Shown: piece after piece, positions 810 to 58,919 of the stretch
How positions within the stretch are numbered: the first letter of the stretch is position 1
How the letters are laid out: the number at the start of each line of letters is the position of its first letter
Source of the DNA: a virus
Direction: 5' to 3' (one strand)
DNA: 64,000 bases
Virus record (IMG/VR): IMGVR_UViG_3300009093_000034
Span: 30,632 to 94,631 of that record
Notes under the pieces: generated by a model
Seen by the model: only the letters and a program-made list of their open reading frames with translations
Told to the model about the DNA's origin: nothing
Databases searched by the model: none
Made by a program: the position numbers and the translations under genes

Positions 810-1163
810 TTGCTTGAGGTGAGCAGTATGATAAATCTTGATAGTTTCCTACAGAGTTTTTTGTGCGTTATGTTCACCTTGGCTGGAATTGTCATTCGAG
901 ACTTTTTTCTAAAGTCTAGCAGAAAGAAACACTGGCGCCACAAGATGGTTCTTAGTTTTGTTCTAGGCCTTCTTCTTTTTTTCGGAAAGAGCTTGATGTT
1001 CCCTCAAGTTAAGGATGAGTTTGCCATAGCTTTTGTTGCTGTGCTCGTAGGTCTAATTGGAGATATGCTCTTCTTAACCTTCCTTAACAAACCTTTCAAG
1101 TTCTTTGAGTTGATGAAAGGGATGAAGGAGCTCTCGAAAGACGAAGATGAAAAGAAGAAATGA
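810..1163 (+). CDS. small membrane protein
   Basis: 117 aa with multiple hydrophobic helices. The alternative ATG at 828 follows a GAGGTGAG RBS-like element. Confidence 0.4.
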   Translation: MLEVSSMINLDSFLQSFLCVMFTLAGIVIRDFFLKSSRKKHWRHKMVLSFVLGLLLFFGKSLMFPQVKDEFAIAFVAVLVGLIGDMLFLTFLNKPFKFFELMKGMKELSKDEDEKKK

Positions 1164-2151: not shown

Positions 2152-3402
2152 ATGAGTTTCAACGTAAAAGAATTTAAGGAGCGCGCAAAGGCCGCTGCTC
2201 TTAAGGAAGCTGCTGCCGCTGGCAGAGCTCCAGCACAGGCTCCTGCTCCTGCAGCAAAGCCTACTAACGACAAGATCGCTTCTCTCAAAGAAAAGATCCA
2301 GACCAAGCTCGCTGAGAAGAAGGCTGCTCAAGCCGCTGCACCAGCAGGAGATGCTGATCGACAAGCTAGACTCAAGGCTTTCAAGGAAAACTTGATTACT
2401 AAGAGGAGAGCCGCTAAGCTCCAAGAGAATCGTGTTGCAAGAAACACCGCAGCCAAGGAAACCGGACGCAACCTCAAGGAAGAGACTCTTCTTCTTAAGA
2501 AGAGAGTTCAGAACTTGAAGAACTGGTTCAAGGAGAACGAAGGAGTTCTCGGAGCCGGTGTAGATCCTTACGCAGCAGGAACCATCCCAGGTCAAGCTGT
2601 TCCAGGTCTAGAACCTTCCATGGATCCTAACGCTCCAGCTCAACCTCCTGTTCAGCTTCCTCCAGAAGTCGTTGCAGAGATTCAGAGCATCGCAACCGCA
2701 GCAGAGTCTTTGGCTCAGCTCGCCGGTATCGAACCTGCTACCAACCTCGGTGCAGAACCTGGTTCTGATGTTCCAGCAACCACTGCAGATGGAGAAGGCG
2801 GAGCTCTTCCTCAGGCACAACCTGGTGTAAACCCTGTTCTTGAGTCCATCAGGAAGAGAAAGATCGACTCTATCAAGGAGAAGCTTGCTGCTCGTAAGGC
2901 AGAGAGCCTCGCTGAGAAGAAGACCACTGAAGATGACGAGATCGCCGCTCTTCAGGAAAAGGCTGCAAAGCGCAGAGCTGCTCTTCAAGAGCTTCGTGCT
3001 AAGGTCATGGCAGAGTCTTTCAATGATCAAGAAGCAACTGATGACCTCGTTCAGGCTCTTGAGATCAACCCTTCTTACCCTTACCCTACCGCTCCAAAGT
3101 ACACCGACCGCTCTGAAGTTCTTCCAACCGCAGGAACTAAGAGAGGCAACGAGACAGGTTCCTTTACCCCCGGTAAGAACACTCTCAAGCCTGGTCATGT
3201 CTGGAAGCCTGGCACCTTGAAGGTCTCTGGTTCTACCAAGGAACTTCAGATCCACAACCAATCCGCAGACGCTCCTGAGGGAACCGCTCTTCGTGAAGAT
3301 GGTCAGTTGGATCCTGAGAACTGGGCAGATCGCCACGTTCTTAAGATGACTGAGAGCAAGGTTGACTTCCAAGCTCTTCTTAAGAAGGGACTTCTCGGTT
3401 AA
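2152..3402 (+). CDS. Ala/Lys-rich coiled-coil protein, scaffold/core-like (head module)
   Basis: 416 aa of low complexity, Ala/Lys/Glu rich. A strong terminator hairpin lies downstream at 3425-3458. It sits upstream of the capsid gene cluster. Confidence 0.5.
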   Translation: MSFNVKEFKERAKAAALKEAAAAGRAPAQAPAPAAKPTNDKIASLKEKIQTKLAEKKAAQAAAPAGDADRQARLKAFKENLITKRRAAKLQENRVARNTAAKETGRNLKEETLLLKKRVQNLKNWFKENEGVLGAGVDPYAAGTIPGQAVPGLEPSMDPNAPAQPPVQLPPEVVAEIQSIATAAESLAQLAGIEPATNLGAEPGSDVPATTADGEGGALPQAQPGVNPVLESIRKRKIDSIKEKLAARKAESLAEKKTTEDDEIAALQEKAAKRRAALQELRAKVMAESFNDQEATDDLVQALEINPSYPYPTAPKYTDRSEVLPTAGTKRGNETGSFTPGKNTLKPGHVWKPGTLKVSGSTKELQIHNQSADAPEGTALREDGQLDPENWADRHVLKMTESKVDFQALLKKGLLG

Positions 3403-3424
3403 TCAATCGTTAGTCTGATGTTAA

Positions 3425-3458
3425 AACCTCCACCCTAGGGTGGAGGTTTTCTTTTTTC
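3425..3458 (+). terminator. rho-independent terminator
   Basis: CCTCCACCC-TA-GGGTGGAGG hairpin followed by TTTTCTTTTTT. Confidence 0.75.
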
Positions 3459-9094: not shown

Positions 9095-9120
9095 TCTAGA
9101 CTAGATTCTTAAGTCAAGAA

Positions 9121-9150
9121 AAACCCTCTCGAAAGAGAGGGTTTTTTATT
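9121..9150 (+). terminator. rho-independent terminator after capsid gene
   Basis: ACCCTCTC-GAAA-GAGAGGGT hairpin followed by TTTTTTATTTT. Confidence 0.8.
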
Positions 9151-9176
9151 TTATACTTAGACATAAGGAAAACTAT

Positions 9177-9707
9177 ATGACACACTACTTCAGCACAGAA
9201 GATCTAGAACGACTCATGATGAATCAGATCCAATACCAAAAGGATCTAGATGAAGAATTTAAGGTTCCTCTTCTTGACATTGGTTCAACTCTTGAACGTC
9301 ACCTTCGAAGCATTGAGATCCCATCGGATAGAGTCAAGATCTTGGTGATGAACACCTCTGTTGAGAAGTTCACCATCAACAACACTGAGGTGATCATCCA
9401 TGCAAAGCCGATCCCAACTCTGGAGTCAAAGGATCTCGAGTTCTTTCCAGAGCAAAAGAGATACATTGAAGAAAACATTCAAGACGTGTTTGATACTCTG
9501 ACAGAGTTCGACTTCTTGGTCTTCGGTCTTTTCATCCCATATGTGTTGAATGGAACCATGACTTGGAACACTGACATCAATGAACAACCTAACGCTCTTA
9601 AGACCTCAGCCTTCTTGGGAGGTTACATGGTCTTAACCACAAAGACATCTCCTTACTCGTTGGATGCTTACTCCAAGGAATGGAGAAAGATGCTTGACAA
9701 TAGTTAG
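9177..9707 (+). CDS. short capsid-termini-like paralog 1
   Basis: 176 aa. The N-terminus NQIQYQKDLDE and the C-terminal LVFGLFIPYVLNG motif echo the MCP termini. It has an RBS AAGGAAAA. Confidence 0.5.
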   Translation: MTHYFSTEDLERLMMNQIQYQKDLDEEFKVPLLDIGSTLERHLRSIEIPSDRVKILVMNTSVEKFTINNTEVIIHAKPIPTLESKDLEFFPEQKRYIEENIQDVFDTLTEFDFLVFGLFIPYVLNGTMTWNTDINEQPNALKTSAFLGGYMVLTTKTSPYSLDAYSKEWRKMLDNS

Positions 9708-13630: not shown

Positions 13631-14122
13631 ATGAAAAAATTTATCTTCCTCGATATTGACGGAGTTCTCGCAACCACTTGGCACAAACGCCTTGAGGATG
13701 GAGAGCTCTGTTTCAATGAGGCACCAGTCAGAAACTTTAACGATCTTTGTACGGCGGTACCTGATGCAAAGATCATCATCACCTCAACATGGCGTCTTGG
13801 TAGAACTGTTGATGAGTTGAGAGCTATCTTCAAGTTTAGAGGTTTTCTTTATCCTGAGAGGATCATCGATAAAACTCTCAGATTCTTCTACAACTACGAC
13901 CTCAGCGATGGAACCTCTGCATCTAAAGGAGTTCCTAGAGGTGTTGAGATCGCTCATTGGATGGATCATCATCTCATTGATGAGGATGAGATCTCCTACT
14001 TGATTCTTGATGACGACTCAGACATGATGCTCCGTCAAGGCAACCATTTCCTTCGAACCAATAGTTCTAGAGGTTTGACTTCGACAAACGTCAAAAGAGC
14101 GATTAAGATCCTAAATGGCTAG
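13631..14122 (+). CDS. HAD-like hydrolase (phosphatase/nucleotidase family)
   Basis: The N-terminal FIFLDIDGVLAT matches HAD motif I DxDG(T/V). Confidence 0.5.
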   Translation: MKKFIFLDIDGVLATTWHKRLEDGELCFNEAPVRNFNDLCTAVPDAKIIITSTWRLGRTVDELRAIFKFRGFLYPERIIDKTLRFFYNYDLSDGTSASKGVPRGVEIAHWMDHHLIDEDEISYLILDDDSDMMLRQGNHFLRTNSSRGLTSTNVKRAIKILNG

Positions 14123-15472: not shown

Positions 15473-15901
15473 ATGAGATTCACTCAAGAATGGTTTAGAA
15501 ACTCACCACAAGAAGAAGTCAAGCTATTGAATGGTGAGGAAGTTTGGGTCTGCGATTACAGATTCACCTCATTAGGCAACAAGCCTATTCGAGTCATTGT
15601 TCCGACTCTTTGTATCATCCACGTCAGTTTTTACGTGGACAAGTACTATCCTAGAGGAAACCCGATTCCTGTTGTAGAACTCAAGATCAAGAAGAACGGA
15701 AAAGATCTTAAGGTAGAAGACAACACAACGGCCTACAACAACTGGCTGAAGATCTTTAACGATGAACAAGAGTGCAGAGCTTTCTTCAGAGAACAAATGA
15801 CCGAAAACCTTGATGACCTAGACGAGTGGGAAAAAGGTCAGATAGAAAGAGCTGCAGAACTCAGAGCTACAATGCACAAGCTCCTAAAGGAACACGGATG
15901 A
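15473..15901 (+). CDS. hypothetical protein
   Basis: 142 aa. A 140-nt noncoding region containing inverted repeats lies upstream. Confidence 0.45.
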   Translation: MRFTQEWFRNSPQEEVKLLNGEEVWVCDYRFTSLGNKPIRVIVPTLCIIHVSFYVDKYYPRGNPIPVVELKIKKNGKDLKVEDNTTAYNNWLKIFNDEQECRAFFREQMTENLDDLDEWEKGQIERAAELRATMHKLLKEHG

Positions 15902-16698
15902 GCAACAAATTTAAGAACGATTCACTTGGAACAAGGATGAAGGAGAACTATGAGAACAGATCAAAGATCTTTCTCCCTCGTAGAACCTACATCATCCTTC
16001 GTGTGGATGGCAAAGCTTTTCACACATACACGCGTGGTCTATTAAGGCCTTTCGACCAGGGTTTGGTCGAAGACATGGACGCTACGGCAATCTACCTTTG
16101 CAAGAACATCATGGGTGCTCAGTTCGCCTATGTACAGTCTGACGAGATCTCTATTCTTCTCACAGACTTTGACACCAACGAGACCCAATCTTGGTTTGAC
16201 AACAATGTCCAGAAGCTTGCCTCAGTCTCTGCTTCTATGGCAACCTCAGCTTTCAACAAGGCCAGGATTTCAAGGTTCATGGCTACTACGACAGCAGTTC
16301 CTCTCGAGGATGCTGTGGACAAATTGACTTGGGCAGAGTTTGACTCTCGTGCCTTCCAGATCCCTCAGAAAGTTGAAGTAGAGAACTACTTCATCTGGCG
16401 TCAGCAGGATGCTACAAGAAACGCCATCTCCAGTGCTGCTCAATCTGTCTACTCCCACAAAGAACTTGAGGGAAAGTCTGGAGATGAGAAGCAAGAGATG
16501 ATGTTTCAGAGAGGCATCAACTTCAACGACTATGATCCTAAGTACAAAAGAGGTCGTTTGATCGTTACAGAAACTTTTCCAAGTATCTCAGTTACATCAG
16601 GTGACATGGCAATTAGAACAAAATGGGTCTCCACGGCCGCTCCTATCTTCACTCAAGATAGAGATGATCTCTCTGATAGAATTCCAGAAAGTAGGTAA
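15898..16698 (+). CDS. Thg1-like protein (tRNA-His guanylyltransferase family, 3'-5' nucleotidyltransferase)
   Basis: YIILRVDGKAFHTYT and YVQSDEISILL match the Thg1 hallmark blocks RIDGRxFHRF and QSDEYSF. The ATG at 15898 overlaps the upstream stop. Confidence 0.7.
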   Translation: MSNKFKNDSLGTRMKENYENRSKIFLPRRTYIILRVDGKAFHTYTRGLLRPFDQGLVEDMDATAIYLCKNIMGAQFAYVQSDEISILLTDFDTNETQSWFDNNVQKLASVSASMATSAFNKARISRFMATTTAVPLEDAVDKLTWAEFDSRAFQIPQKVEVENYFIWRQQDATRNAISSAAQSVYSHKELEGKSGDEKQEMMFQRGINFNDYDPKYKRGRLIVTETFPSISVTSGDMAIRTKWVSTAAPIFTQDRDDLSDRIPESR

Positions 16699-21846: not shown

Positions 21847-22494
21847 ATGAGATTTACTATGAAAAAGCTATTCATCACAGTGATGATCTCTCTTTTCTTG
21901 TGGGGTTGTACGGTAACCAAGACCGTTGAGGTCTCTCCTACACCTACACCAGATCCTATCGCAGTACAACCTCCAACTTTCATTCCTCAAACCATCGAGA
22001 TGCCCTTGGAGTTTCAACTTCCCATGAAGGACCCTATCGTTACAAGCCGTTTTGGATATCGAAATGACTTGAAGAAAGGTCCAATGGGTGGTGGAGACTC
22101 TATTCACATGGGACTCGACATGATCCCGAAGAATAGAAAGTTGATCCATGCTCCTATCTTGGCAGCAGCGGATGGAGAGGTTGTTATTGTTTATCCTCCT
22201 CCGAGCAAGAAGTTCAAAGGTCATGTCGTTTTTGGTGGTTGTATTCAGATCAAGAGTGACTCCGGCTGGAGAACCAAGTCTGGAAAGATCATTTGGGCGT
22301 ACACCTTGTACGGACACATGAGTGATGTTTGGATGACAGAAGGCACCATGGTCAAAGCTGGTCAAGTCATAGGTCTGATGGGAAACACAGGACAAGCTGA
22401 AGGCTATCACCTCCACTTCGAGGTCTCATTTGACCCTGAAGACTTTCTTCCAGAGCTTGATGCTCTTCCTACTCTACGAAAGGCTCAAGACTAA
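21847..22494 (+). CDS. M23 family metallopeptidase (LytM-like), secreted/lipoprotein; candidate lysin
   Basis: HMGLDM (HxxxD) and GNTGQAEGYHLHFE (HxH) are M23 signatures. It has an N-terminal signal peptide with LWGC. Confidence 0.7.
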   Translation: MRFTMKKLFITVMISLFLWGCTVTKTVEVSPTPTPDPIAVQPPTFIPQTIEMPLEFQLPMKDPIVTSRFGYRNDLKKGPMGGGDSIHMGLDMIPKNRKLIHAPILAAADGEVVIVYPPPSKKFKGHVVFGGCIQIKSDSGWRTKSGKIIWAYTLYGHMSDVWMTEGTMVKAGQVIGLMGNTGQAEGYHLHFEVSFDPEDFLPELDALPTLRKAQD

Positions 22495-22495
22495 C

Positions 22496-22990
22496 ATGTC
22501 AGACGAAAAGAAAGTCTACGAAGAAAAGAGAGTTTACATCTACGTCCAAGAACCTGGTCAATATTGCATGAGATGCCCAGAGTGTCATGAAGAACATGAT
22601 CTTCTTTGGTCGGAGTTCAAGAGCTCTATCTGGTGTAACAAGTGCCAGAAGGATCAGTATCTTCCATTGGACTCTACAGATAGTGGAGTCTTCTCTGGTC
22701 CGATCATGCTTCATACCTCTGAGCTCTTAGGCATGCGATTTGATCGTCTCTACATTGAACAAGACAAGATCCTTGTTCAAGAGGTCTACATCGACATGAC
22801 AGACTCAGAGGATGAGATCGTAGAGAAGATCAAGAAGGGAGAGATCGAACTTCTTGATGGACCACAGTACCTTGAGTACTTGGACAAACGAAGAAAACAT
22901 CTTGAGAGCCAAATGTCTACTGGACTGAAGGCTGAGATCAAGGATACTAGGGAACAACAAAATGACACCGATGATTCAAAAGTTGATTGA
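22496..22990 (+). CDS. zinc-binding protein
   Basis: ATG at 22496 just after the M23 stop. It has CMRCPEC...CNKC motifs. Confidence 0.45.
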   Translation: MSDEKKVYEEKRVYIYVQEPGQYCMRCPECHEEHDLLWSEFKSSIWCNKCQKDQYLPLDSTDSGVFSGPIMLHTSELLGMRFDRLYIEQDKILVQEVYIDMTDSEDEIVEKIKKGEIELLDGPQYLEYLDKRRKHLESQMSTGLKAEIKDTREQQNDTDDSKVD

Positions 22991-23781: not shown

Positions 23782-24044
23782 GTGGTCCAGCTCCAAAGCA
23801 TGGACAACCTACCCACCATGAAGCTGTTCATCACGTTTATCTTACTGTAGAACAGATGGAGAAGATGACAACTCAACGTCTTCTAGCTTACTTCAAGAAA
23901 CACTTGATGCATGATCCATTCTATCCTTCCAGTGAAAAAGAAAAACATGACGAGTGGGAGATGGTTAGAGCTAAAGCTCAAAGTATACTATCAAGTAGAG
24001 AACATGTTCCTTCTAAGAGGGAACTCCAAAAGAGAAAGAAATGA
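23778..24044 (+). CDS. hypothetical protein
   Basis: 88 aa. Confidence 0.4.
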   Translation: MSGPAPKHGQPTHHEAVHHVYLTVEQMEKMTTQRLLAYFKKHLMHDPFYPSSEKEKHDEWEMVRAKAQSILSSREHVPSKRELQKRKK

Positions 24045-24463
24045 CACGATACGTTTTAGGTTTTCTTTTTGATGACGAAAAGAACACGGTCGTCTTGATC
24101 AAGAAAAACAAGCCTGTTTGGCAAAAAGGTCTCTTGAACGGTGTTGGTGGGAAGATCGAAGAAGGTGAACTTCCTATAGTCGCTATGGTAAGAGAGTTTG
24201 AAGAGGAAACGTCTGTGAAAACAGACAACCTTGATTGGAAGCACTTTGCTGGTGTTGAAGGCGAAGGTTACTCCATCGCTTGTTTCTACACCATCAGTTC
24301 TGACTACATGAAAAACGTCAAGACCATGGAAGAAGAAGTGATCGAGATTCGTAGGATTCGAGATCTTCAAGATCTTCCTATAGTCTCCAATCTTCTTTGG
24401 TTGGTTCACCTTGCAAAAGATGAAAACAATGGTAACCATCCTACTGTTCAAGTAAAGTACTAA
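24041..24463 (+). CDS. Nudix hydrolase
   Basis: GGKIEEGELPIVAMVREFEEETSV fits the Nudix box Gx5Ex7REUxEExGU almost perfectly. Confidence 0.65.
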   Translation: MTRYVLGFLFDDEKNTVVLIKKNKPVWQKGLLNGVGGKIEEGELPIVAMVREFEEETSVKTDNLDWKHFAGVEGEGYSIACFYTISSDYMKNVKTMEEEVIEIRRIRDLQDLPIVSNLLWLVHLAKDENNGNHPTVQVKY

Positions 24464-24491: not shown

Positions 24492-24959
24492 TTGTACATG
24501 AGAAGAACCTATAGAATAGAAAAGTCTTTAGATATTGAGGAGTTCATTAGAATAACTAATGAATCGTTAACCATGAAACAAGCTGCTGTGAAACTTGGTC
24601 TTCATTTTAATAGTTTCAGAAGAATAGCAGTAAAGTATGGAGTTTATCGACCTAATCGTGGAGGCAAAGGAACCCATAAGCATAAAGAAAATGGGACTAC
24701 ACCTCTTACTGAAATTTTGGAAGGAAACCATCCATCATATCAAACGTTTAGATTAAAACTTAGATTAATTTCAGAAGGAATTTTTATTCCAGAATGTTCT
24801 GAATGCAAAAATACTCAATGGAATAAAAAAGAAATTCCTTTAGAGTTAGATCACATAGATGGAAATTCTTCTAACCATCTTTTAGACAACTTACGATTGT
24901 TATGTCCAAATTGTCATGCACAAACTGAGACGTATAGAGGAAAAAACAAAAAGTTTTGA
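24492..24959 (+). CDS. HNH homing endonuclease with N-terminal HTH
   Basis: CSECKN...LDHIDGNSSNHLLDNLRLLCPNCH is an HNH motif. Its AT-rich codon usage is distinct from the flanks. Confidence 0.7.
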   Translation: MYMRRTYRIEKSLDIEEFIRITNESLTMKQAAVKLGLHFNSFRRIAVKYGVYRPNRGGKGTHKHKENGTTPLTEILEGNHPSYQTFRLKLRLISEGIFIPECSECKNTQWNKKEIPLELDHIDGNSSNHLLDNLRLLCPNCHAQTETYRGKNKKF

Positions 24960-24969
24960 GATATTACTC
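24954..24969 (+). promoter_or_regulatory. promoter-like motif variant TTTTGAGATATTACTC (copy 4) upstream of tRNA
   Basis: Variant of the TGAGATATTGTAG family, ending about 10 nt before the tRNA 5' end. Confidence 0.45.
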
Positions 24970-24979
24970 AAGCAAGTGA

Positions 24980-25090
24980 GCGGGAGTGGAGAAATGGTGA
25001 GACTCAGCGGACTTATGAATGCATTCTAACTAGTGCATTGAATAAATCCGCTGCTTAAGAGGCGTGCCGGTTCGAGTCCGGTCTCCCGCA
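24980..25090 (+). tRNA. tRNA-like gene (111 nt) with long variable arm and apparent 28-nt insertion in the anticodon loop; candidate anticodon UAU
   Basis: 7-bp acceptor GCGGGAG/CTCCCGC with discriminator A. U8, A14, GG and A21 are present in the D-arm. The T-arm is GCCGG-TTCGAGT-CCGGT. The anticodon stem GCGGA/UCCGC encloses 35 nt instead of 7. The variable arm is GCTT-AAG-AGGC. Confidence 0.55.
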
Positions 25091-25138
25091 GAAGTTGGAC
25101 CGTAGAGTTCAACGATTTCCCAAAGAGGAGGATAACCA

Positions 25139-25591
25139 ATGAGTTATCTCACTGCTACTACTCAGGACATTCAGGACGTCGCTAAGACCCTGATTTATGC
25201 CACTGACAAGACCACGTCCCGCGACATTCTGGAGAAGATGCGCGCCGACAATTACTGGATCAACCAGACCGAGGTCGCTGCTGCGCTTCGTGATCTTCTG
25301 GCCACGGATCCTTCCTACGTTCGGACCTTTCAGCCCGATGCCTCGGTTCCTACCGGTGGCTACTTCATCTACGGCCTTGCGAGCGTGATCAAGACCACGG
25401 CCTCTGCCCCTGTCTACCCTGCGAAGGTGAAGAAGGTTCAGACTGTTGGTGACTACGAAGCTCGTGACAAGAACGATCCCAACTGGACCCTCGTTCGTTA
25501 CGACAACGTCACCGAGAACCAGGCCAAGCATCTCTTCTCCGAAGAGTACGGCGTCGCCTACACTGACGTTCGCGTCAAGAAGGCTGTCTAA
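25139..25591 (+). CDS. hypothetical protein (GC-rich island)
   Basis: 150 aa with a strong RBS AGAGGAGG. Its GC-rich codon usage differs from the phage backbone. Confidence 0.5.
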   Translation: MSYLTATTQDIQDVAKTLIYATDKTTSRDILEKMRADNYWINQTEVAAALRDLLATDPSYVRTFQPDASVPTGGYFIYGLASVIKTTASAPVYPAKVKKVQTVGDYEARDKNDPNWTLVRYDNVTENQAKHLFSEEYGVAYTDVRVKKAV

Positions 25592-25849: not shown

Positions 25850-27061
25850 ATGGCCCGTATTGAAAAGCTGATCATGGTGACCGGTGAAGAGAATCACAAC
25901 AAGGTCTATGAGCTGATCGACAACGAGAACGGTACTTGTACCGCCAAGTGGGGTCGGGTTGGCGCTGCTCTTCAGGAGTGCAACTACCCCATCAGCGAGT
26001 TTGAAAAGAAGCTCAAGGAAAAGGTCAAGAAGGGCTATCGCGTGATCACCGATCTTCTGTCTGTCGAGAAAAGTGATGGTAAGACCACCACTACGGACGA
26101 CGAAGAGGTAAAGATCCAGAACATGTCCCGTGAGGCCATGGAGTTGATCAACTTCCTCCAGAGTTGTGCTAAGGGCATCGTCAAGCAGAACTACACCGTC
26201 AAAGTTGCCGACGTTACTCAGAAGCAGATCGACGCTGCTCAGGCCATCCTGGACGGACTGGTTGCTCTGTCCAACCAGAACTGGTCTCGTGAAGAGGCCA
26301 ACAAGATCCTTTTGGATCTTTACAACACCATCCCCCGGAAGATGAGCAACACCAAGAACTTCCTCATCCAGATCGACAACATCACGAAGAAGCGCCTTCA
26401 GGAGTTGATCTCCAGTGAAGCCGATCTTCTTGACGTTATGCGCGGTCAGGTTCAGACCACGAACGTTGCTCCCAAGTCTTCCACTGGCGAAGTCAAGTTG
26501 GATATTGAGATTCGTCTCGCTACTCCCGATGAGATCGATGAGATCTCCAAGAAGACTGACTTTGATGTTCGTAGTGCTGCAAGGATCTATCGGGTGGAGA
26601 ACACCAAGACCAAGAATCGCTACGAAAGTATCAACAAGCAGAATGAACAGCTTCTCTACCACGGTTCTCGCAGCCAGAACTGGTGGTCGATCATCAACGG
26701 CGGTTTGAAGATTCGTCCGACCAACGCCGTTCACACTGGCTCGATGTTCTCCGATGGTATCTACGCTGCTGACAAAGCTCAGAAGTCTCTCGGTTACACC
26801 GACGGTGGTTATTGGACTGGTAGCAGTGGTTCCTCGAAGAGGTTCCTCGGCATCTACAGTTTCAACCTCGGTCGTCAGTGGGATCTGTTCGCTGGTGGTC
26901 AGCGTCATGCCAGCTGGATGATGCAGCTCAACCTGAAGAAGATCAACGACAAGGGTTTTGACTCTCTGTTCGCTAAGGGTGGAGCAGATCTTCGCAACAA
27001 TGAGATGATCGTGTTCGAAGAGGCTCGCTGCACCATCAAGTATCTGATCGAGATGCGTTAA
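25850..27061 (+). CDS. PARP-like ADP-ribosyltransferase (WGR domain + helical domain + ART catalytic domain)
   Basis: The N-terminal WGRVG is a WGR motif. The C-terminal LYHGSRSQNWWSIINGG, GIYAADKAQKS and NEMIVFEEARCTIKYLIE blocks supply the H-Y-E triad of PARP catalytic domains. Confidence 0.75.
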   Translation: MARIEKLIMVTGEENHNKVYELIDNENGTCTAKWGRVGAALQECNYPISEFEKKLKEKVKKGYRVITDLLSVEKSDGKTTTTDDEEVKIQNMSREAMELINFLQSCAKGIVKQNYTVKVADVTQKQIDAAQAILDGLVALSNQNWSREEANKILLDLYNTIPRKMSNTKNFLIQIDNITKKRLQELISSEADLLDVMRGQVQTTNVAPKSSTGEVKLDIEIRLATPDEIDEISKKTDFDVRSAARIYRVENTKTKNRYESINKQNEQLLYHGSRSQNWWSIINGGLKIRPTNAVHTGSMFSDGIYAADKAQKSLGYTDGGYWTGSSGSSKRFLGIYSFNLGRQWDLFAGGQRHASWMMQLNLKKINDKGFDSLFAKGGADLRNNEMIVFEEARCTIKYLIEMR

Positions 27062-29995: not shown

Positions 29996-30925
29996 ATGAG
30001 TGACGCAGTAGAAAAGAAAGAACCCACGTATGATGAGATCGTCAAAAGCGCTAAAGAGTACTTTGAAGAACTCAAAGCCAAGATCAAGGTCTCTAACGAT
30101 GAGCTTCTTGACCAGATCTCCACAAACTCAGCTCAGCTCTTTGCTCAGCTAGAGAGAACTGGACAGATTCAGGCCATGAAGAAACTTGTGGCTCACATTG
30201 CCTTGATTGAAAAGGAACACGAGATCATCAAGTCTGGGATCAACACCTTTGTGACCACAGATGAGATCAAAGAGTTCATTGACAAGGTTGATGGACGTGT
30301 GGTGAATCTCATTGAGCTGCATAAGTATGAGCGTGAGGTTCCTGAGAACGTGATCCAGAAGTACGAGAAGGTCAAACATCTTTTCACCACCTTCTTCGTT
30401 CTTTTCACTGACTACACAAAAGAACACGCCAAAAAGATCGCCAAGGAAAGAGATCCTATTCTCTTTGGTATGCTTCAAGACGCTGGAACCAAGGCCACGA
30501 CTCAGCGTATGTATGTGATCGGTGACTGGGAAGATGAGTATTGTGATCTTACTTTGGACCGACTTGTGTCCGAAGCCGCTGGTCTCTTTGACAGACCGAT
30601 CGCTATTCAGTTCAGAGATCCTTTGTCCCTTGACGAGATGAGAGCTAAGCTCAAGATGTTGGATGGAGAGTCCAAATCTGATAACTCTAGATGGGCAATG
30701 AACAATGTCGTGGTTACCGGAACCACTGCTTCCATGCAAAACATCTACGTTCCTGTAGTTCCATCAGAACAGGATTTTAAAGATAAGAGCATTCCTGATG
30801 AAGTTCAAGAAGTCGCAAAAGACGTTGTTGAAGAGGAAGAAACTCGAAGTCTTCTCACTAAAGATTCTGAGATTGACACCATGATTCTCCAAGAGACCAA
30901 GAAGCCTTGGTGGAAGTTCTGGTAA
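29996..30925 (+). CDS. hypothetical protein
   Basis: 309 aa. Confidence 0.5.
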   Translation: MSDAVEKKEPTYDEIVKSAKEYFEELKAKIKVSNDELLDQISTNSAQLFAQLERTGQIQAMKKLVAHIALIEKEHEIIKSGINTFVTTDEIKEFIDKVDGRVVNLIELHKYEREVPENVIQKYEKVKHLFTTFFVLFTDYTKEHAKKIAKERDPILFGMLQDAGTKATTQRMYVIGDWEDEYCDLTLDRLVSEAAGLFDRPIAIQFRDPLSLDEMRAKLKMLDGESKSDNSRWAMNNVVVTGTTASMQNIYVPVVPSEQDFKDKSIPDEVQEVAKDVVEEEETRSLLTKDSEIDTMILQETKKPWWKFW

Positions 30926-36372: not shown

Positions 36373-36436
36373 GGATTCATTCCTCCGAGATTCTTTATCA
36401 ATTAGTGCAAATAACTCGTAAGTTTATAGGAACGCA

Positions 36437-36466
36437 TAAAAAAAGCACCCCGAAGGGTGCTTTTTC
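36437..36466. terminator. bidirectional rho-independent terminator
   Basis: AAAAAAAGCACCCC-GAAG-GGGTGCTTTTT is a symmetric hairpin with T-runs on both strands. It ends the minus-strand fibre operon. Confidence 0.75.
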
Positions 36467-36482
36467 AATCGAAAGAGATTGA

Positions 36483-37013
36483 TTAGATCTCAAGAGCGGT
36501 TGCGGTAACTCCGGTGACGGTAACCGTACCACCCGTAACAGCGAGCTGAGAGAAGTCGAACCAGTAAGAGGTACCTGGAACAACGGTAGCAAAACCGTGA
36601 AGAACGAATCCGACGGTTTGAGCAGCGACGGCCTCGACGAAGGTCTGAGCAATACCAACCAAGGTACCAGCGACTGCGGCACCGTTAGCAGGAGCAGCAC
36701 CAGTTCCAATTCTGGCATCAAGAGTTGCACCATCAGAGATGGTTCCGTTCTTAACAACACCAGTGATGGTGATCTCTACCTGAGTAGAGAAAGCTGGGGT
36801 GATGGATCCTGCAAGTCCACCCATGACTGCGGTAGCAGAGGTAGTTCCGGCTGGTGAAGCTGCGGTTACCTGAGCTGCGACTCTTCCGGAAGCTGGACCA
36901 AAGGCTGGTGACCATCTACCAACCTCGCCACCTTGGTTCTGCAAGAACATACCAATGTGGAGATCACTTGCTGCCTCAACAACTGTTGGGACTAAAGACT
37001 GTACTTGTGACAT
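36483..37013 (-). CDS. GC-rich Ala/Gly/Thr-rich protein (fibre-operon terminal gene)
   Basis: 176 aa with an RBS TAAGGAG. Its codon usage is the GC-richest in the block. Confidence 0.5.
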   Translation of the reverse strand: MSQVQSLVPTVVEAASDLHIGMFLQNQGGEVGRWSPAFGPASGRVAAQVTAASPAGTTSATAVMGGLAGSITPAFSTQVEITITGVVKNGTISDGATLDARIGTGAAPANGAAVAGTLVGIAQTFVEAVAAQTVGFVLHGFATVVPGTSYWFDFSQLAVTGGTVTVTGVTATALEI

Positions 37014-46142: not shown

Positions 46143-46574
46143 ATGGTTACAAGAAAAATTTGGCGTTTTGAAAACGAAAAAGGTGAAGGTCCTTATAACG
46201 GACACCCTAGTCCAAAATTTCTCTTTAAGTCTACTCATGACGGAGAGTCTAAGAAACATCCTCATCCCAAGTATGACTTTAAGAACTCTAAGATCATTAG
46301 ATTCTTAAACAACATGAACACTAAAGATCACTTTAGATGTGGATTTTCTACAAAGAAACAGGCATTTGAGTGGTTTACTGAACGAGAAAGAAAGATCTTG
46401 AAAAATAATGGCTACAATTTAGTCCGTAAAAATGCAGATAGAATCTTTAAAGGAAACAAACAAGTTATCTATATTCGTGAAGGTCATTTAGAAGAACTTG
46501 TTAAAGTTTTTCGTTTTGATCATTCTGTTCCAAAAACATTAACATCAATATATTCAATCAGGAGCTCAACATGA
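46143..46574 (+). CDS. hypothetical basic protein
   Basis: ATG at 46143 just after the upstream stop, in frame with the longer tracked ORF. Confidence 0.4.
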   Translation: MVTRKIWRFENEKGEGPYNGHPSPKFLFKSTHDGESKKHPHPKYDFKNSKIIRFLNNMNTKDHFRCGFSTKKQAFEWFTERERKILKNNGYNLVRKNADRIFKGNKQVIYIREGHLEELVKVFRFDHSVPKTLTSIYSIRSST

Positions 46575-47122
46575 TGCTACAGACCATTGAAGGAAACCTA
46601 ATCACTCTCGCCCTTGAAGGCAAGTTCGACATGATCGCTCATGGTTGTAACTGCTTCCATACCATGGGAGGAGGGATCGCCAAGTCTATTTCTGAGACTT
46701 TTCCTGAAGCTCTTCAAGCCGACAGGGTCTTTGGAGAAAGAGGAAACGTTTGGAAGCTTGGTCAGGCTTCCAAGGCTACGATCTTTCGTGGAGACACTCA
46801 GTTTGTTGTGGTGAACCTCTATACTCAGTTTGAGCCTGGAGCCAACTTTGAATACTTGGCCTTGATCAACTCTTTAGAGCATCTCAAGAAATACTTGGAT
46901 ATTCATCTCTACGATCGAGTGTCCGATAAACCTTACCGTCTTGGTTTTCCCAAGATCGGAGCTGGTATTGGTGGTGGAGATTGGGACCAGATCTACCAGA
47001 TCATTGACCAGTCTCTTGACGAGAAGTATCGTGAGGAACAGGGAGTCGAAATCACGGTTGTCGAGTTCATTCCTCCTAATCCTCTTCAGGAGATCGTTGT
47101 TCGTTCTCTTCAGAAGAAGTAA
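46571..47122 (+). CDS. macrodomain protein (Poa1-like ADP-ribose processing)
   Basis: MIAHGCNCFHTMGGGIAKSI matches the Poa1/macro signature iaHqcNc.g.MGaGIA. Confidence 0.6.
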   Translation: MMLQTIEGNLITLALEGKFDMIAHGCNCFHTMGGGIAKSISETFPEALQADRVFGERGNVWKLGQASKATIFRGDTQFVVVNLYTQFEPGANFEYLALINSLEHLKKYLDIHLYDRVSDKPYRLGFPKIGAGIGGGDWDQIYQIIDQSLDEKYREEQGVEITVVEFIPPNPLQEIVVRSLQKK

Positions 47123-56489: not shown

Positions 56490-57587
56490 ATGCAGAACCT
56501 TCTCGTCCTCAAGTTCATTCAGGAACATCCCAACGATTGGGAGCAGATCCTCTCTGCTGAGCCTTACCACATGTCAGTCAAGCACTACGATGGTAAGGAA
56601 CTCATCAACCAGAACTTGGTGATGCTCTCCTACAACCAGATCTTCTCCGACTTCCACAACCCGATCGTTCGTGAGTGCCGAGGTATCATCATCGACAAGG
56701 TCACCATGAAGGCTGTCTGTGTTCCGTTCTTCAAGTTCGGAAACCAGGGAGAGAGCTATGCTGACAAGATCGATTGGTCCACAGCTCATGTTCTCCAGAA
56801 GATCGATGGTTCTCTGATCAAGCTCTATTTCTACAATGGAACCTGGCGAATCGCCACCAATGGAACCATCAACGCTCTCGAGTGTGATCTTCCTTCGGAC
56901 CTTGGTCCTTCGAAGACCTTCGGTGAGTTGTTCTTGAACAACATCCCTGTGGACAGCTTCCTCGACATCGCCGACAAAGACTACACTTACATGTTTGAGA
57001 TCTGCTCTCCTTGGAACCGGGTGGTAACTCCCTGGCAGACCACCGAGATCTTCTTCTTGGGCATGCGTCACAACGAGACCCTTCAGGAAACTCTTCCTGA
57101 TGACCGGTTCATGCCGATCCTTCCTCCGAAGATGTATCCTCTGACCTCTTTGGCTGAGGTCGAAGCTGCTTCCAAAGAGCTTCCCTTCCAGGATGAAGGT
57201 TATGTCGTCGTTGACGCTGACTTCAAGCGTGTCAAGATCAAGGGTCCGGCTTACGTCAAGATCCACCATCTCCGTTCTGAAGGGCCCTTCACCATGAAGC
57301 GTGCCTTCGAGTTGGTTCAGGCCAATGAAGTTGGTGAGTTTCTTTCGTACTATCCCGAGTATACTAACGTTGTAGAAGGTGTTCGTTCCAAATTGGACGT
57401 CATCAAGGAAGCTCTGAAGGAACAGGAAACTCTTGTTTTCTCCCAGAACTTCCTTAGCCGAAAGGACTACGCTCTCTTTGTCAAGGACTTCCAGTACAAG
57501 TCTTACTTCTTCTCGAAGTTGGATGGCAAGGTGTCTGGCATCGACGAGTACGTTTCTAAACTCAAGTTCGATCAGGTTCAACTGTGA
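56490..57587 (+). CDS. RNA ligase 1 (T4 RnlA-like)
   Basis: VLQKIDGSLIKLYF is nucleotidyltransferase motif I KxDG(S/T). Its 365-aa length is comparable to T4 Rnl1. Confidence 0.7.
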   Translation: MQNLLVLKFIQEHPNDWEQILSAEPYHMSVKHYDGKELINQNLVMLSYNQIFSDFHNPIVRECRGIIIDKVTMKAVCVPFFKFGNQGESYADKIDWSTAHVLQKIDGSLIKLYFYNGTWRIATNGTINALECDLPSDLGPSKTFGELFLNNIPVDSFLDIADKDYTYMFEICSPWNRVVTPWQTTEIFFLGMRHNETLQETLPDDRFMPILPPKMYPLTSLAEVEAASKELPFQDEGYVVVDADFKRVKIKGPAYVKIHHLRSEGPFTMKRAFELVQANEVGEFLSYYPEYTNVVEGVRSKLDVIKEALKEQETLVFSQNFLSRKDYALFVKDFQYKSYFFSKLDGKVSGIDEYVSKLKFDQVQL

Positions 57588-58553: not shown

Positions 58554-58919
58554 ATAAAGGGAACTCTGTTTCAGCGTAACAACCGAAGTTAGCGCCGACA
58601 AAATGAGATGATGCGAAAGGCCTTGGGGAGCACAAGGTACCAACGAGTAGCTACCATCTCACGTACTGTCTCTCATGCCCCTGAGAGAACTTCCGTTTTA
58701 AGAAGCGACCACGAATTGCTTCCCAGGTTGCGGAAGAACAAATAGTTCCCGAGCAAAGTAGTGTAACGGTTTCGCACGACCAGTGTCTACTGGTTAGTTC
58801 TAGGATCATCCCCTAGACTTTGCTATTGCTCTTGAATTCCACGTAAAGGAGGTTAACCATTCACATGAATTCCAAGGACAACTTTCACACTTCACACATC
58901 ATAAGGTCTTCTCACGAAA

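Follow-up and report, generated by a model that had tools for sequence, protein, structure and literature searches.

The window analysed here, a 64,000-nucleotide (nt) stretch of viral DNA (IMG/VR record IMGVR_UViG_3300009093_000034, positions 30,632 to 94,631), carries on its plus strand, at 24980-25090, a transfer RNA (tRNA) gene for leucine, tRNA-Leu(UAA), whose anticodon is interrupted by a 28-nt insertion predicted to fold into a hairpin. Insertions of the same architecture interrupt Leu-type tRNA genes on other contigs, and a homing endonuclease gene lies immediately upstream. We consider the insertion to be best read as a mini-intron that depends on protein for its removal and that, in addition, would protect the gene from the endonuclease, a reading that we favour tentatively and judge nearly as apt to be right as wrong. 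The feature itself is genuine and unusual, its identity as judged from sequence is clear, and the mechanism set out below is plausible.

The gene encodes a type II tRNA with discriminator A and no encoded CCA. Its 5' exon (24980-25015) comprises the 5' strand of the acceptor stem, the D-arm, the 5' strand of the anticodon stem (25007-25011) and C32, U33, U34 and A35 (25012-25015); the putative mini-intron (25016-25043, GC content 32%) reads UG-AAUGCAUU-CUAACU-AGUGCAUU-GAAU and occurs nowhere else in the window; and the 3' exon (25044-25090) supplies A36, A37 and A38, the 3' strand of the anticodon stem (25047-25051), the variable arm, the T-arm, the 3' strand of the acceptor stem and A73. Written as RNA, the layout is GCGGGAG-UG-GAG-AAAUGGUGAGA-CUC-A-GCGGA-[35 nt]-UCCGC-U-GCUU-AAG-AGGC-GU-GCCGG-UUCGAGU-CCGGU-CUCCCGC-A. 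Features typical of a Leu tRNA are seen both in the sequence and in the ARAGORN drawing: the long variable arm, a D-stem of 3 base pairs (bp) with a Leu-type D-loop, and A73.

The initial annotation of this DNA had described a complete cloverleaf, with acceptor stem, D-arm, T-arm (GGUUCGAGUCC) and discriminator A, a type II long variable arm (GCUU-AAG-AGGC, 4 bp), an anticodon stem GCGGA/UCCGC and, within its loop, a 28-nt insertion that would be unusual for a phage, and this description stands. When a 301-nt region is searched alone, the Rfam tRNA model RF00005 matches at 42.0 bits (gathering score 29, E = 7.5e-8, model positions 1-71), the alignment placing 31 nt where the model has 3 loop positions. 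The 7-nt anticodon loop of an ordinary tRNA is absent from the gene, in which 35 nt lie between GCGGA and UCCGC. ARAGORN with its intron search (-i), which that annotation had proposed as a check, recovers the gene, and default ARAGORN misses it. Whole-window Rfam searches, at gathering and E-value thresholds alike, do not report the tRNA because of their speed filters. In practical terms, default tRNA finders and filtered Rfam scans overlook genes of this kind.

The register of the insertion was fixed by comparison with uninterrupted genes. IMG/VR was scanned for AGCGGACTT-N(3-33)-ATCCGCTG, the uninterrupted form being AGCGGACTT-NNN-ATCCGCTG; the 54 uninterrupted matches include 45 tRNA-Leu(taa), 3 tRNA-Lys and 1 tRNA-Arg genes, and none of the 64 matches with a longer gap is a tRNA. 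Eight contiguous 28-nt deletions can be made from the 35-nt loop, and the loop CUUAAAA arises from only one of them, the removal of 25016-25043, which leaves AGCGGACUUAAAAUCCGCUG, the exact anticodon arm of phage tRNA-Leu(UAA). Over its entire length, the 83-nt sequence that results can be aligned with each of 35 different phage tRNA-Leu(taa) genes (identity 60-76%), and in the related interrupted tRNAs described below the 3' halves match annotated phage tRNA-Leu genes. Since the deletion restores a Leu(UAA) arm on a type II body that has A73 and a Leu-type D-arm, the gene can be identified from its sequence as tRNA-Leu(UAA), with the insertion lying between anticodon nucleotides 35 and 36.

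Two claims made at first sight of the sequence fall with this result: the anticodon had been read as UAU, in a register that the Leu(taa) arm of 45 of the 54 uninterrupted matches corrects to UAA, and the insertion had been placed after position 37, where its actual site is 35/36. The ARAGORN labels Ile-tat, Lys-ttt and Pro-agg were likewise set aside as register artefacts. The terminal loop of the insertion, CUAACU, contains UAA, and we rejected it as an anticodon since relatives have GAUAUGAGC, ACCCCGUGUG or CUACGC at this place. UUA and UUG together make up 31% of Leu codons in the large genes of the phage, a usage that implies a need for a Leu(UAA) tRNA and that we count toward the mini-intron reading.

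Relatives with the same kind of insertion were found in one scan of JGI metagenome contigs for AGACNNAGCGGACTT-N(10-40)-ATCCGCTG (comparison loci are given L-numbers here). Five of its 14 loci are Leu-type tRNA genes with insertions of 28-32 nt: L125, L132 and L137, which have one 31-nt insertion in common, L135 (32 nt) and L124 (28 nt). The tRNA body is intact in all members. Phage-like DNA surrounds four of the five, with DUF2786, NUDIX, AAA_33 kinase, metallophosphatase and collagen-like protein genes among the neighbours; L135 stands inside a nine-gene tRNA array as the sole Leu(UAA) candidate of that array, and L137 lies 3 nt from a tRNA-Trp gene. The remaining locus, L124, is on a 1,585-bp GC-rich contig, where a GC-rich Leu-type tRNA with encoded CCA and the 28-nt hairpin insertion occupies 1028-1144 (plus strand). 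Between L125 and L132 the insertion is identical at 31 of 31 positions and the exons agree at 68 of 86 (18 differences; Fisher p = 0.003), a pattern which suggests that the hairpin is under selection, was recently transferred, or both. Apparent synteny between the window and L137 through a NUDIX gene was rejected as family-level similarity (30% over 61 residues).

Applied to one genome each of 185,579 bacterial and archaeal species, the same scan pattern turned up no interrupted tRNA, nor did it in IMG/VR; no match was obtained there either with one or the other half of the tRNA, with the complete interrupted arm or with the helix type of the window and L125. Compared with phage records, the interrupted relatives gave exon-half matches only, and the window's genome and locus had no close relative among 50,697 such records in megablast or blastn searches. 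The JGI pattern fixed the sequence of the anticodon stem, and the true family may be much larger than the one found.

Insertions of other kinds were seen along the way. The ARAGORN intron search among tRNA-like genes of IMG/VR phages gave insertions of 36-50 nt in the anticodon region at L012 (165-288), L071 (6054-6173, minus strand), L086 (1407-1529, minus strand) and L115 (12402-12525); L012, L071 and L086 have a ...CAGCAAU...-type motif in common, and L115 resembles tRNA-Thr(GGU) with 50 nt inserted at 36/37. Short insertions other than group I introns may be commoner in phage tRNAs than annotation indicates. At L127 and L139, a 5' part of tRNA-Leu(UAA) that ends with CTTAAAA gives way to unrelated DNA, after which comes AATCCGCTG; these look like attachment-site junctions of elements integrated in tRNA-Leu genes and not like introns.

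Folding predictions give the insertion a definite architecture. The whole RNA folds better than any of 200 shuffled sequences (z = -4.1), and the anticodon arm alone departs further from its shuffles (z = -5.5). In the predicted fold, the insertion lengthens the anticodon stem, and an irregular hairpin of ~17 bp results. At its base is the anticodon stem of 5 bp; above it C32 and A38 are mismatched, U33-A35 take part in a helix of 4 bp, and a G x GA internal loop leads to an 8-bp upper helix (25018-25025 with 25032-25039) closed by a 6-nt loop (25026-25031). A hairpin inside the insertion had been noticed earlier at 5 bp; it does form, and its size is 8 bp (AAUGCAUU/AGUGCAUU).

The four insertion types have a common predicted fold. 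C32 is bulged or opposite A38 above the 5-bp anticodon stem, and next comes a lower helix of 4-5 bp, in which the bases from U33 to nucleotide 35 or 36 find their partners in A36-A38 and the 3' end of the insertion. A purine x G mismatch, which takes the form G x GA in the window's gene, separates this helix from an 8-bp upper helix that carries a loop of 6-10 nt of free sequence. The window's gene thus shows every trait by which we would define a family of hairpin mini-introns: the lower helix over nucleotides 33-36, the purine x G mismatch, the 8-bp helix and the Leu body. Its upper helix has 7 of 8 pairs in common with that of L125 (AAUACAUU/AGUGUAUU), on the same architecture; the corresponding strands are AGCGCAUG/CGUGCGUU in L135 and GUUGCUCU/AGAGCAAC in L124, and all 32 upper-helix cells across the four types are standard pairs. 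RNAalifold draws 18 pairs with compensatory double changes in 8 of them, so that the predicted pairing is both conserved and covarying across these sequences.

The strongest hint of removal comes from the position of the helix relative to the exons. The boundary between exon and insertion is at 35/36 in the window's gene and at 36/37 in L125 and L135, and the upper helix shifts with it, being preceded by 6 nt and followed by 7 nt in the former, and preceded by 7 nt and followed by 6 nt in the latter. A single rule, the removal of 2 nt, the hairpin and 4 nt, gives CUUA+AAA in the window's gene and CUUAA+AA in L125 and L135, that is, CUUAAAA in three of the four insertion types (the window's, that of L125, L132 and L137, and that of L135), and CUUCCAA in L124. 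The same CUUAAAA despite a boundary moved by 1 nt can be ascribed to a fixed ruler measured from the helix together with selection on the product; neither a permanent hairpin nor a dead gene explains this coupling of boundary and loop.

Under the mini-intron reading, a structure-specific endonuclease that measures a fixed distance from the upper helix (2 nt on the 5' side, 4 nt on the 3' side) would cleave the lower helix in both strands, and an RNA ligase would rejoin the tRNA halves to give the 7-nt loop CUUAAAA. The cuts so predicted in L125, L135 and L124 leave 2-nt 3' overhangs ~10-12 rungs from the loop. Overhangs of 2 nt at the 3' end are the geometry of RNase III products, whose ends, 5'-phosphate and 3'-hydroxyl, are substrates for ligases of the Rnl1 type. 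It is solely from this geometry that we infer a possible role for RNase III.

A candidate for the sealing step is encoded in the same window. The phage's Rnl1-type ligase (56490-57587, plus strand) would be the obvious enzyme to close the cut anticodon loop, and a phosphatase could assist if the ends need healing. The ligase gene matches PF09511 (43.1 bits, cut-off 28.3), phrog_562 over its full length (E = 1.1e-50, positions 31-359 of 377) and the T4 Rnl1 structures PDB 2c5u and 5tt6 (E ~1e-14), and falls below the equivalog cut-off of TIGR02308 (60.8 bits vs 242; E = 1.2e-16); judged from these scores, it is a distant member of the Rnl1 family and not an equivalog. The phosphatase, a candidate for 3'-end healing, is a HAD protein of the 'Swiss Army Knife' RNA-repair type at 13631-14122 (plus strand; PF18143 HAD_SAK_2, E = 1.4e-25, 90.7 bits). 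At 15826-16698 (plus strand) lies a Thg1-like gene (PF04446, E = 2.1e-27, together with Thg1C; phrog_4717, E = 3.8e-80); proteins of this kind are 3'-5' nucleotidyl transferases that act on tRNA 5' ends. The three together appear to form a phage RNA repair and maturation set. About 70 open reading frames (ORFs) of the window were scanned with Pfam, PHROGs or NCBIfam, and no polynucleotide kinase was found among them.

The second half of the reading, protection from the endonuclease, turns on the neighbouring gene. As had been noted at the outset, an HNH endonuclease is encoded directly upstream: a predicted free-standing homing endonuclease gene at 24492-24959 (plus strand) ends 20 nt before the tRNA, matches PF01844 at 22 bits (cut-off 21.4) and phrog_10822 at E = 1.7e-31, and has a complete motif, CxxC...DHxDG...NH...N...CPNCH, with 46 of 46 family-invariant residues kept. 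The family has 2,356 homologues at E <= 1e-5. We examined eight independent genomic contexts, that of the window included, and seven of them involve tRNA-Leu(UAA), two with the HNH gene encoded in an intron at 34/35 and five with a free-standing gene within 2-58 nt. The closest homologues (62-63% identity), at L165-L172, are ORFs inside a group I intron (RF00028, 57 bits) that splits tRNA-Leu(UAA) between ...GGACUU and AAAAUCC..., at U34/A35, which we take to be the classic group I intron site of this gene. The same intron-encoded arrangement is found at L146-L148 and L152-L156 (RF00028, 57 bits in L146). At L149/150, L157/158 and L159/160, a free-standing HNH gene ends 2-3 nt before an intact tRNA-Leu(taa), at L162-164 the HNH gene is found 58 nt downstream of the tRNA-Leu(taa), and L161, on a Bacteroidota-like chromosome, is the sole context without a Leu gene. 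On this comparative evidence, the window's HNH protein belongs to a homing endonuclease family dedicated to tRNA-Leu(UAA), for which adjacency to this gene is a hallmark.

The intron-encoded members would be expected to target the intron-less DNA of the anticodon arm, and in the window's gene the core GGACTTAAAATCC is broken by the 28 bp at a distance of 1 nt from where the group I introns insert. The insertion would probably destroy the HNH target and so render the resident gene immune, and such immunity would explain why the intron and the free-standing endonuclease gene travel together.

Some further features of the HNH loci deserve record. The group I split genes span, for example, 915-1650 in L165 and 2440-3200 in L146, and in L165 a transfer-messenger RNA gene (RF00023, 71.8 bits) directly follows the split tRNA. 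Most contigs with P0008 are shorter than 2 kilobases (kb), which hints at assembly breaks at the locus. L149 (1521-5073) is a very AT-rich contig with an array of 11 tRNA genes, whose Leu tRNAs measure 74-76 nt and have no long variable arm; here the HNH homologue sits between Leu(aag) and Leu(taa).

Several points weigh against the mini-intron reading. Splicing is something that we infer throughout, we know of no bacterial enzyme that splices such an intron, and no RNase III, RtcB or EndA homologue was found among the ~70 ORFs scanned. The window's own 1x2 internal loop predicts a stagger of 1 nt, not 2 nt. The four independent insertion types were all ascertained with a pattern that fixed the anticodon-stem sequence. 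As to the shield, the other interrupted tRNAs have no HNH gene in the flanks available, and several genomes hold the HNH gene beside an uninterrupted tRNA-Leu(UAA), so the insertion is not required for the two to coexist. The most awkward member is L124: under the rule its loop becomes CUUCCAA, so that a Leu-type body would bear the Gly anticodon UCC, and a Leu anticodon cannot be obtained by any contiguous deletion. Substitutions at its positions 35-36 are matched by substitutions in the bases with which they pair, a pattern that points to selection for pairing and not for decoding. L124 may be a tRNA that joins a Leu body to a Gly anticodon, an RNA that stays unspliced, or a gene that obeys a different cut rule.

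The behaviour of L124 leads to the alternative that survives best, namely that the RNA is never spliced and works as a tRNA-like molecule, its Leu body kept and its anticodon loop permanently replaced by a long hairpin with a non-decoding role; we consider this unlikely but worth weighing in full. Such an RNA might serve as a decoy or sponge for host nucleases that target tRNA or for tRNA-binding factors, or as a leucyl donor; E. coli LeuRS recognises the tRNA body without reading the anticodon. Selection on hairpin pairing that extends to 35-36, where L124 has C-C with changed partners, fits this view, as do a terminal loop free to vary, a tRNA body intact in every member and the lack of an identified splicing enzyme among the ORFs scanned. 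What a permanent hairpin leaves unexplained is the retention of the seven loop nucleotides CUUAAAA in three of four types across the 1-nt shift of boundary, and the presence of L135 in an ordinary tRNA array as its sole Leu(UAA) candidate; the idea also has no known precedent or specific target.

It is less probable still, and in our view improbable, that the gene is simply inactivated, the 28 bp being a DNA-level scar or shield against the HNH endonuclease, with tRNA function lost and the RNA without a role. The insertion does sit 1 nt from the group I site of the HNH protein's closest relatives, insertion and HNH gene are both at 32% GC against ~60% for the exons, and the only other tRNA call in the window is unsupported by Rfam, so that this region of the phage shows no obvious dependence on tRNAs of its own. 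Yet the cloverleaf is flawless and scores 42 bits even with the insertion in place, other members have no adjacent HNH gene in the available sequence, and a role confined to DNA does not predict homologous insertions in at least four diverged lineages with compensatory changes in an RNA helix. These homologous, covarying insertions on other contigs also weaken the pseudo-tRNA that the initial annotation had offered as an alternative.

That annotation had further likened the insertion to the archaeal/eukaryotic-type intron, in which a bulge-helix-bulge (BHB) is cut by a splicing endonuclease and the halves are joined by RtcB. The insertion resembles such introns (processed by EndA/TSEN with RtcB or Trl1) in being short, in lying in the anticodon loop, in the pairing of anticodon bases with intron bases and, in concept, in its dependence on protein, but we regard this identity as very improbable: the position is 35/36 (36/37 in relatives) and not 37/38; two 3-nt bulges around a 4-bp helix are absent from the minimum-free-energy and consensus folds, which instead have a 1-nt bulge or C x A mismatch, a helix of 4-5 bp and a 1x1 or 1x2 purine x G mismatch; neither EndA nor RtcB was found in the ORF scan; and the setting is that of a bacterial phage, with an M23 peptidase, a T4-like capsid protein, a sigma-factor-like gene and Shine-Dalgarno sites.

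Just as remote is the prospect that the insertion is what is left of a group I intron, or an RNA of a new type that cleaves or splices itself. In its favour, tRNA-Leu(UAA) is a classic host of a group I intron and relatives of the HNH protein sit in such introns. Against it, 28 nt are too few for a group I core, no RF00028 match appears at E <= 10 in 24900-25200 (the positive controls L165 and L146 give 57 bits), the site is off by 1 nt and the insertion shows no sequence similarity to the ends of the L165- and L146-type introns. A hammerhead-like reading of CUUAUGA...GAA was rejected as well, there being no third stem and the near-match to the CUGAUGA box being absent from relatives.

Several known systems resemble the window's gene in part. 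With the group I introns of tRNA-Leu(UAA) (cyanobacteria, plastids, L165-172 and the L146 group) it shares the host gene, the loop and the HNH family at a site 1 nt away, but those introns exceed 200 nt, have a ribozyme core and interrupt at 34/35, whereas the insertion is 28 nt long, has no core, cannot self-splice, lies at 35/36 and leaves the HNH gene outside. Intervening sequences (IVSs) of bacterial 23S rRNA are excised by RNase III and the fragments are not religated; the likeness is in the extended hairpin that replaces a terminal loop and in the proposed staggered double-strand cut, and the difference in that the tRNA would require religation. For that step the closest analogue is T4 Pnkp/Rnl1 repair, likewise a phage-encoded ligase of the Rnl1 family with end-healing enzymes. 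The T4 break is damage by a host anticodon nuclease; the break in the window's tRNA would instead be a programmed step of maturation. By analogy, the proposed mechanism would most resemble the RNase III-excised rRNA IVSs combined with T4-style ligation of the anticodon loop.

Two published phenomena bear on the arrangement as a whole. Collaborative homing pairs a free-standing endonuclease with an ORF-less intron, as in cyanophage psbA/F-CphI and T4 mobE/I-TevIII (PMC3984707, PMC6083498, PMC2790892); here, too, a free-standing endonuclease gene adjoins a gene in which an 'intron' with no ORF breaks the presumed target, although the window's is not a ribozyme. The nearest published phenomenon is found in the tRNAs of Lak megaphages, which have 'enigmatic' introns of 79-114 nt with a tRNA-like T-arm in Tyr, Phe, Thr and Gly tRNAs (Devoto et al. 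2019, PMC6784885). The Lak introns and those described here are alike in being other than group I, in lying in the anticodon loop, in occurring in very large phages and in an intron identical across diverged genomes; they differ in that the present family consists of simple 28-32-nt hairpins in tRNA-Leu.

The window is part of the 305,853-bp ENA metagenome contig ERZ27252312 k141_4393686, and by gene content its source is a jumbo phage: besides the M23 peptidase, the sigma-factor-like protein and the T4 gp23-like capsid protein, the window encodes a tail-collar protein, a family A DNA polymerase and a Cpn60 chaperonin. Its overall GC content is 43.6%. Across 24492-25591 the GC content moves in steps, from 32% in the HNH gene through ~60% in the tRNA exons and 32% in the insertion to 55% in a downstream ORFan (25139-25591), which suggests a mosaic origin of the segment. 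This ORFan, ORF150, finds itself alone among 5.8 billion clusters and has weak partial matches in IMG/VR; its AlphaFold model is poor (pLDDT, the predicted local distance difference test, 61.6), with no fold match. The tRNA had been credited with its own variant of a promoter motif, but a search of the gene for sigma-70-like promoters and terminators gave none, and the motif in the 20-nt spacer has no second copy in the window.

Within 5 kb of the locus lie a transposase-like ORF (29996-30925; phrog_10081, E = 3.3e-61) and a second, weak HNH-like ORF (22430-22990; phrog_559, E = 3.4e-5). Genes related to NAD and ADP-ribose surround it, with a NUDIX hydrolase at 24041-24463, a PARP-catalytic-domain protein at 25850-27061, which has a weak WGR match and no close relatives in IMG/VR, and a Macro-domain protein at 46571-47122, which has a weak DarG-like match. 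The window's other tRNA call, an ARAGORN 'tRNA-???' at 58752-58825 (plus strand), 1.2 kb downstream of the Rnl1-like ligase gene, combines an acceptor stem of 8 bp with an anticodon loop of 6 nt (tc) and a T-loop that departs from the canonical form; Rfam gives no tRNA match there even in a 351-nt search, and the call is probably spurious or marks a tRNA-like element in a very degenerate state. Sub-threshold Rfam matches to the rnk leader and RNAI at 3396-3457 (plus), 9112-9218 (minus) and 36436-36498 (minus) are GC-rich hairpins followed by U-runs, and we rejected these labels in favour of ordinary intrinsic terminators.

Taken in its boldest form, the proposal is of a new class of tRNA intron in bacteria and phages, a hairpin of 28-32 nt, neither self-splicing nor of the BHB type, that is removed by a ruler-type, RNase III-like cut of both strands measured from the upper helix, with the tRNA halves religated by a phage Rnl1-type ligase, and that in addition renders its gene immune to a dedicated homing endonuclease; this is possible, but we hold it to be doubtful. 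Our search of the literature found no description of such hairpin introns or of tRNA splicing by RNase III and a ligase. To our knowledge, bacteria and phages are thought to have only self-splicing tRNA introns, protein-dependent splicing being regarded as a trait of archaea and eukaryotes. A conserved, covarying hairpin in a phage that encodes an anticodon-loop ligase leads to a testable hypothesis, that tRNAs can be spliced by enzymes in a bacterial system; if this were demonstrated, the hairpin would represent a new category of tRNA intron. Phage RNA ligases would then have a physiological substrate beyond damage repair, and the T4-style tRNA repair kit would become a splicing machine. The hairpin family may also serve as a simpler model for the tRNA introns of the Lak megaphages, and the HNH family, with more than 2,000 members that are found both inside a group I intron and free-standing, provides one system in which to study how introns and endonucleases become associated.

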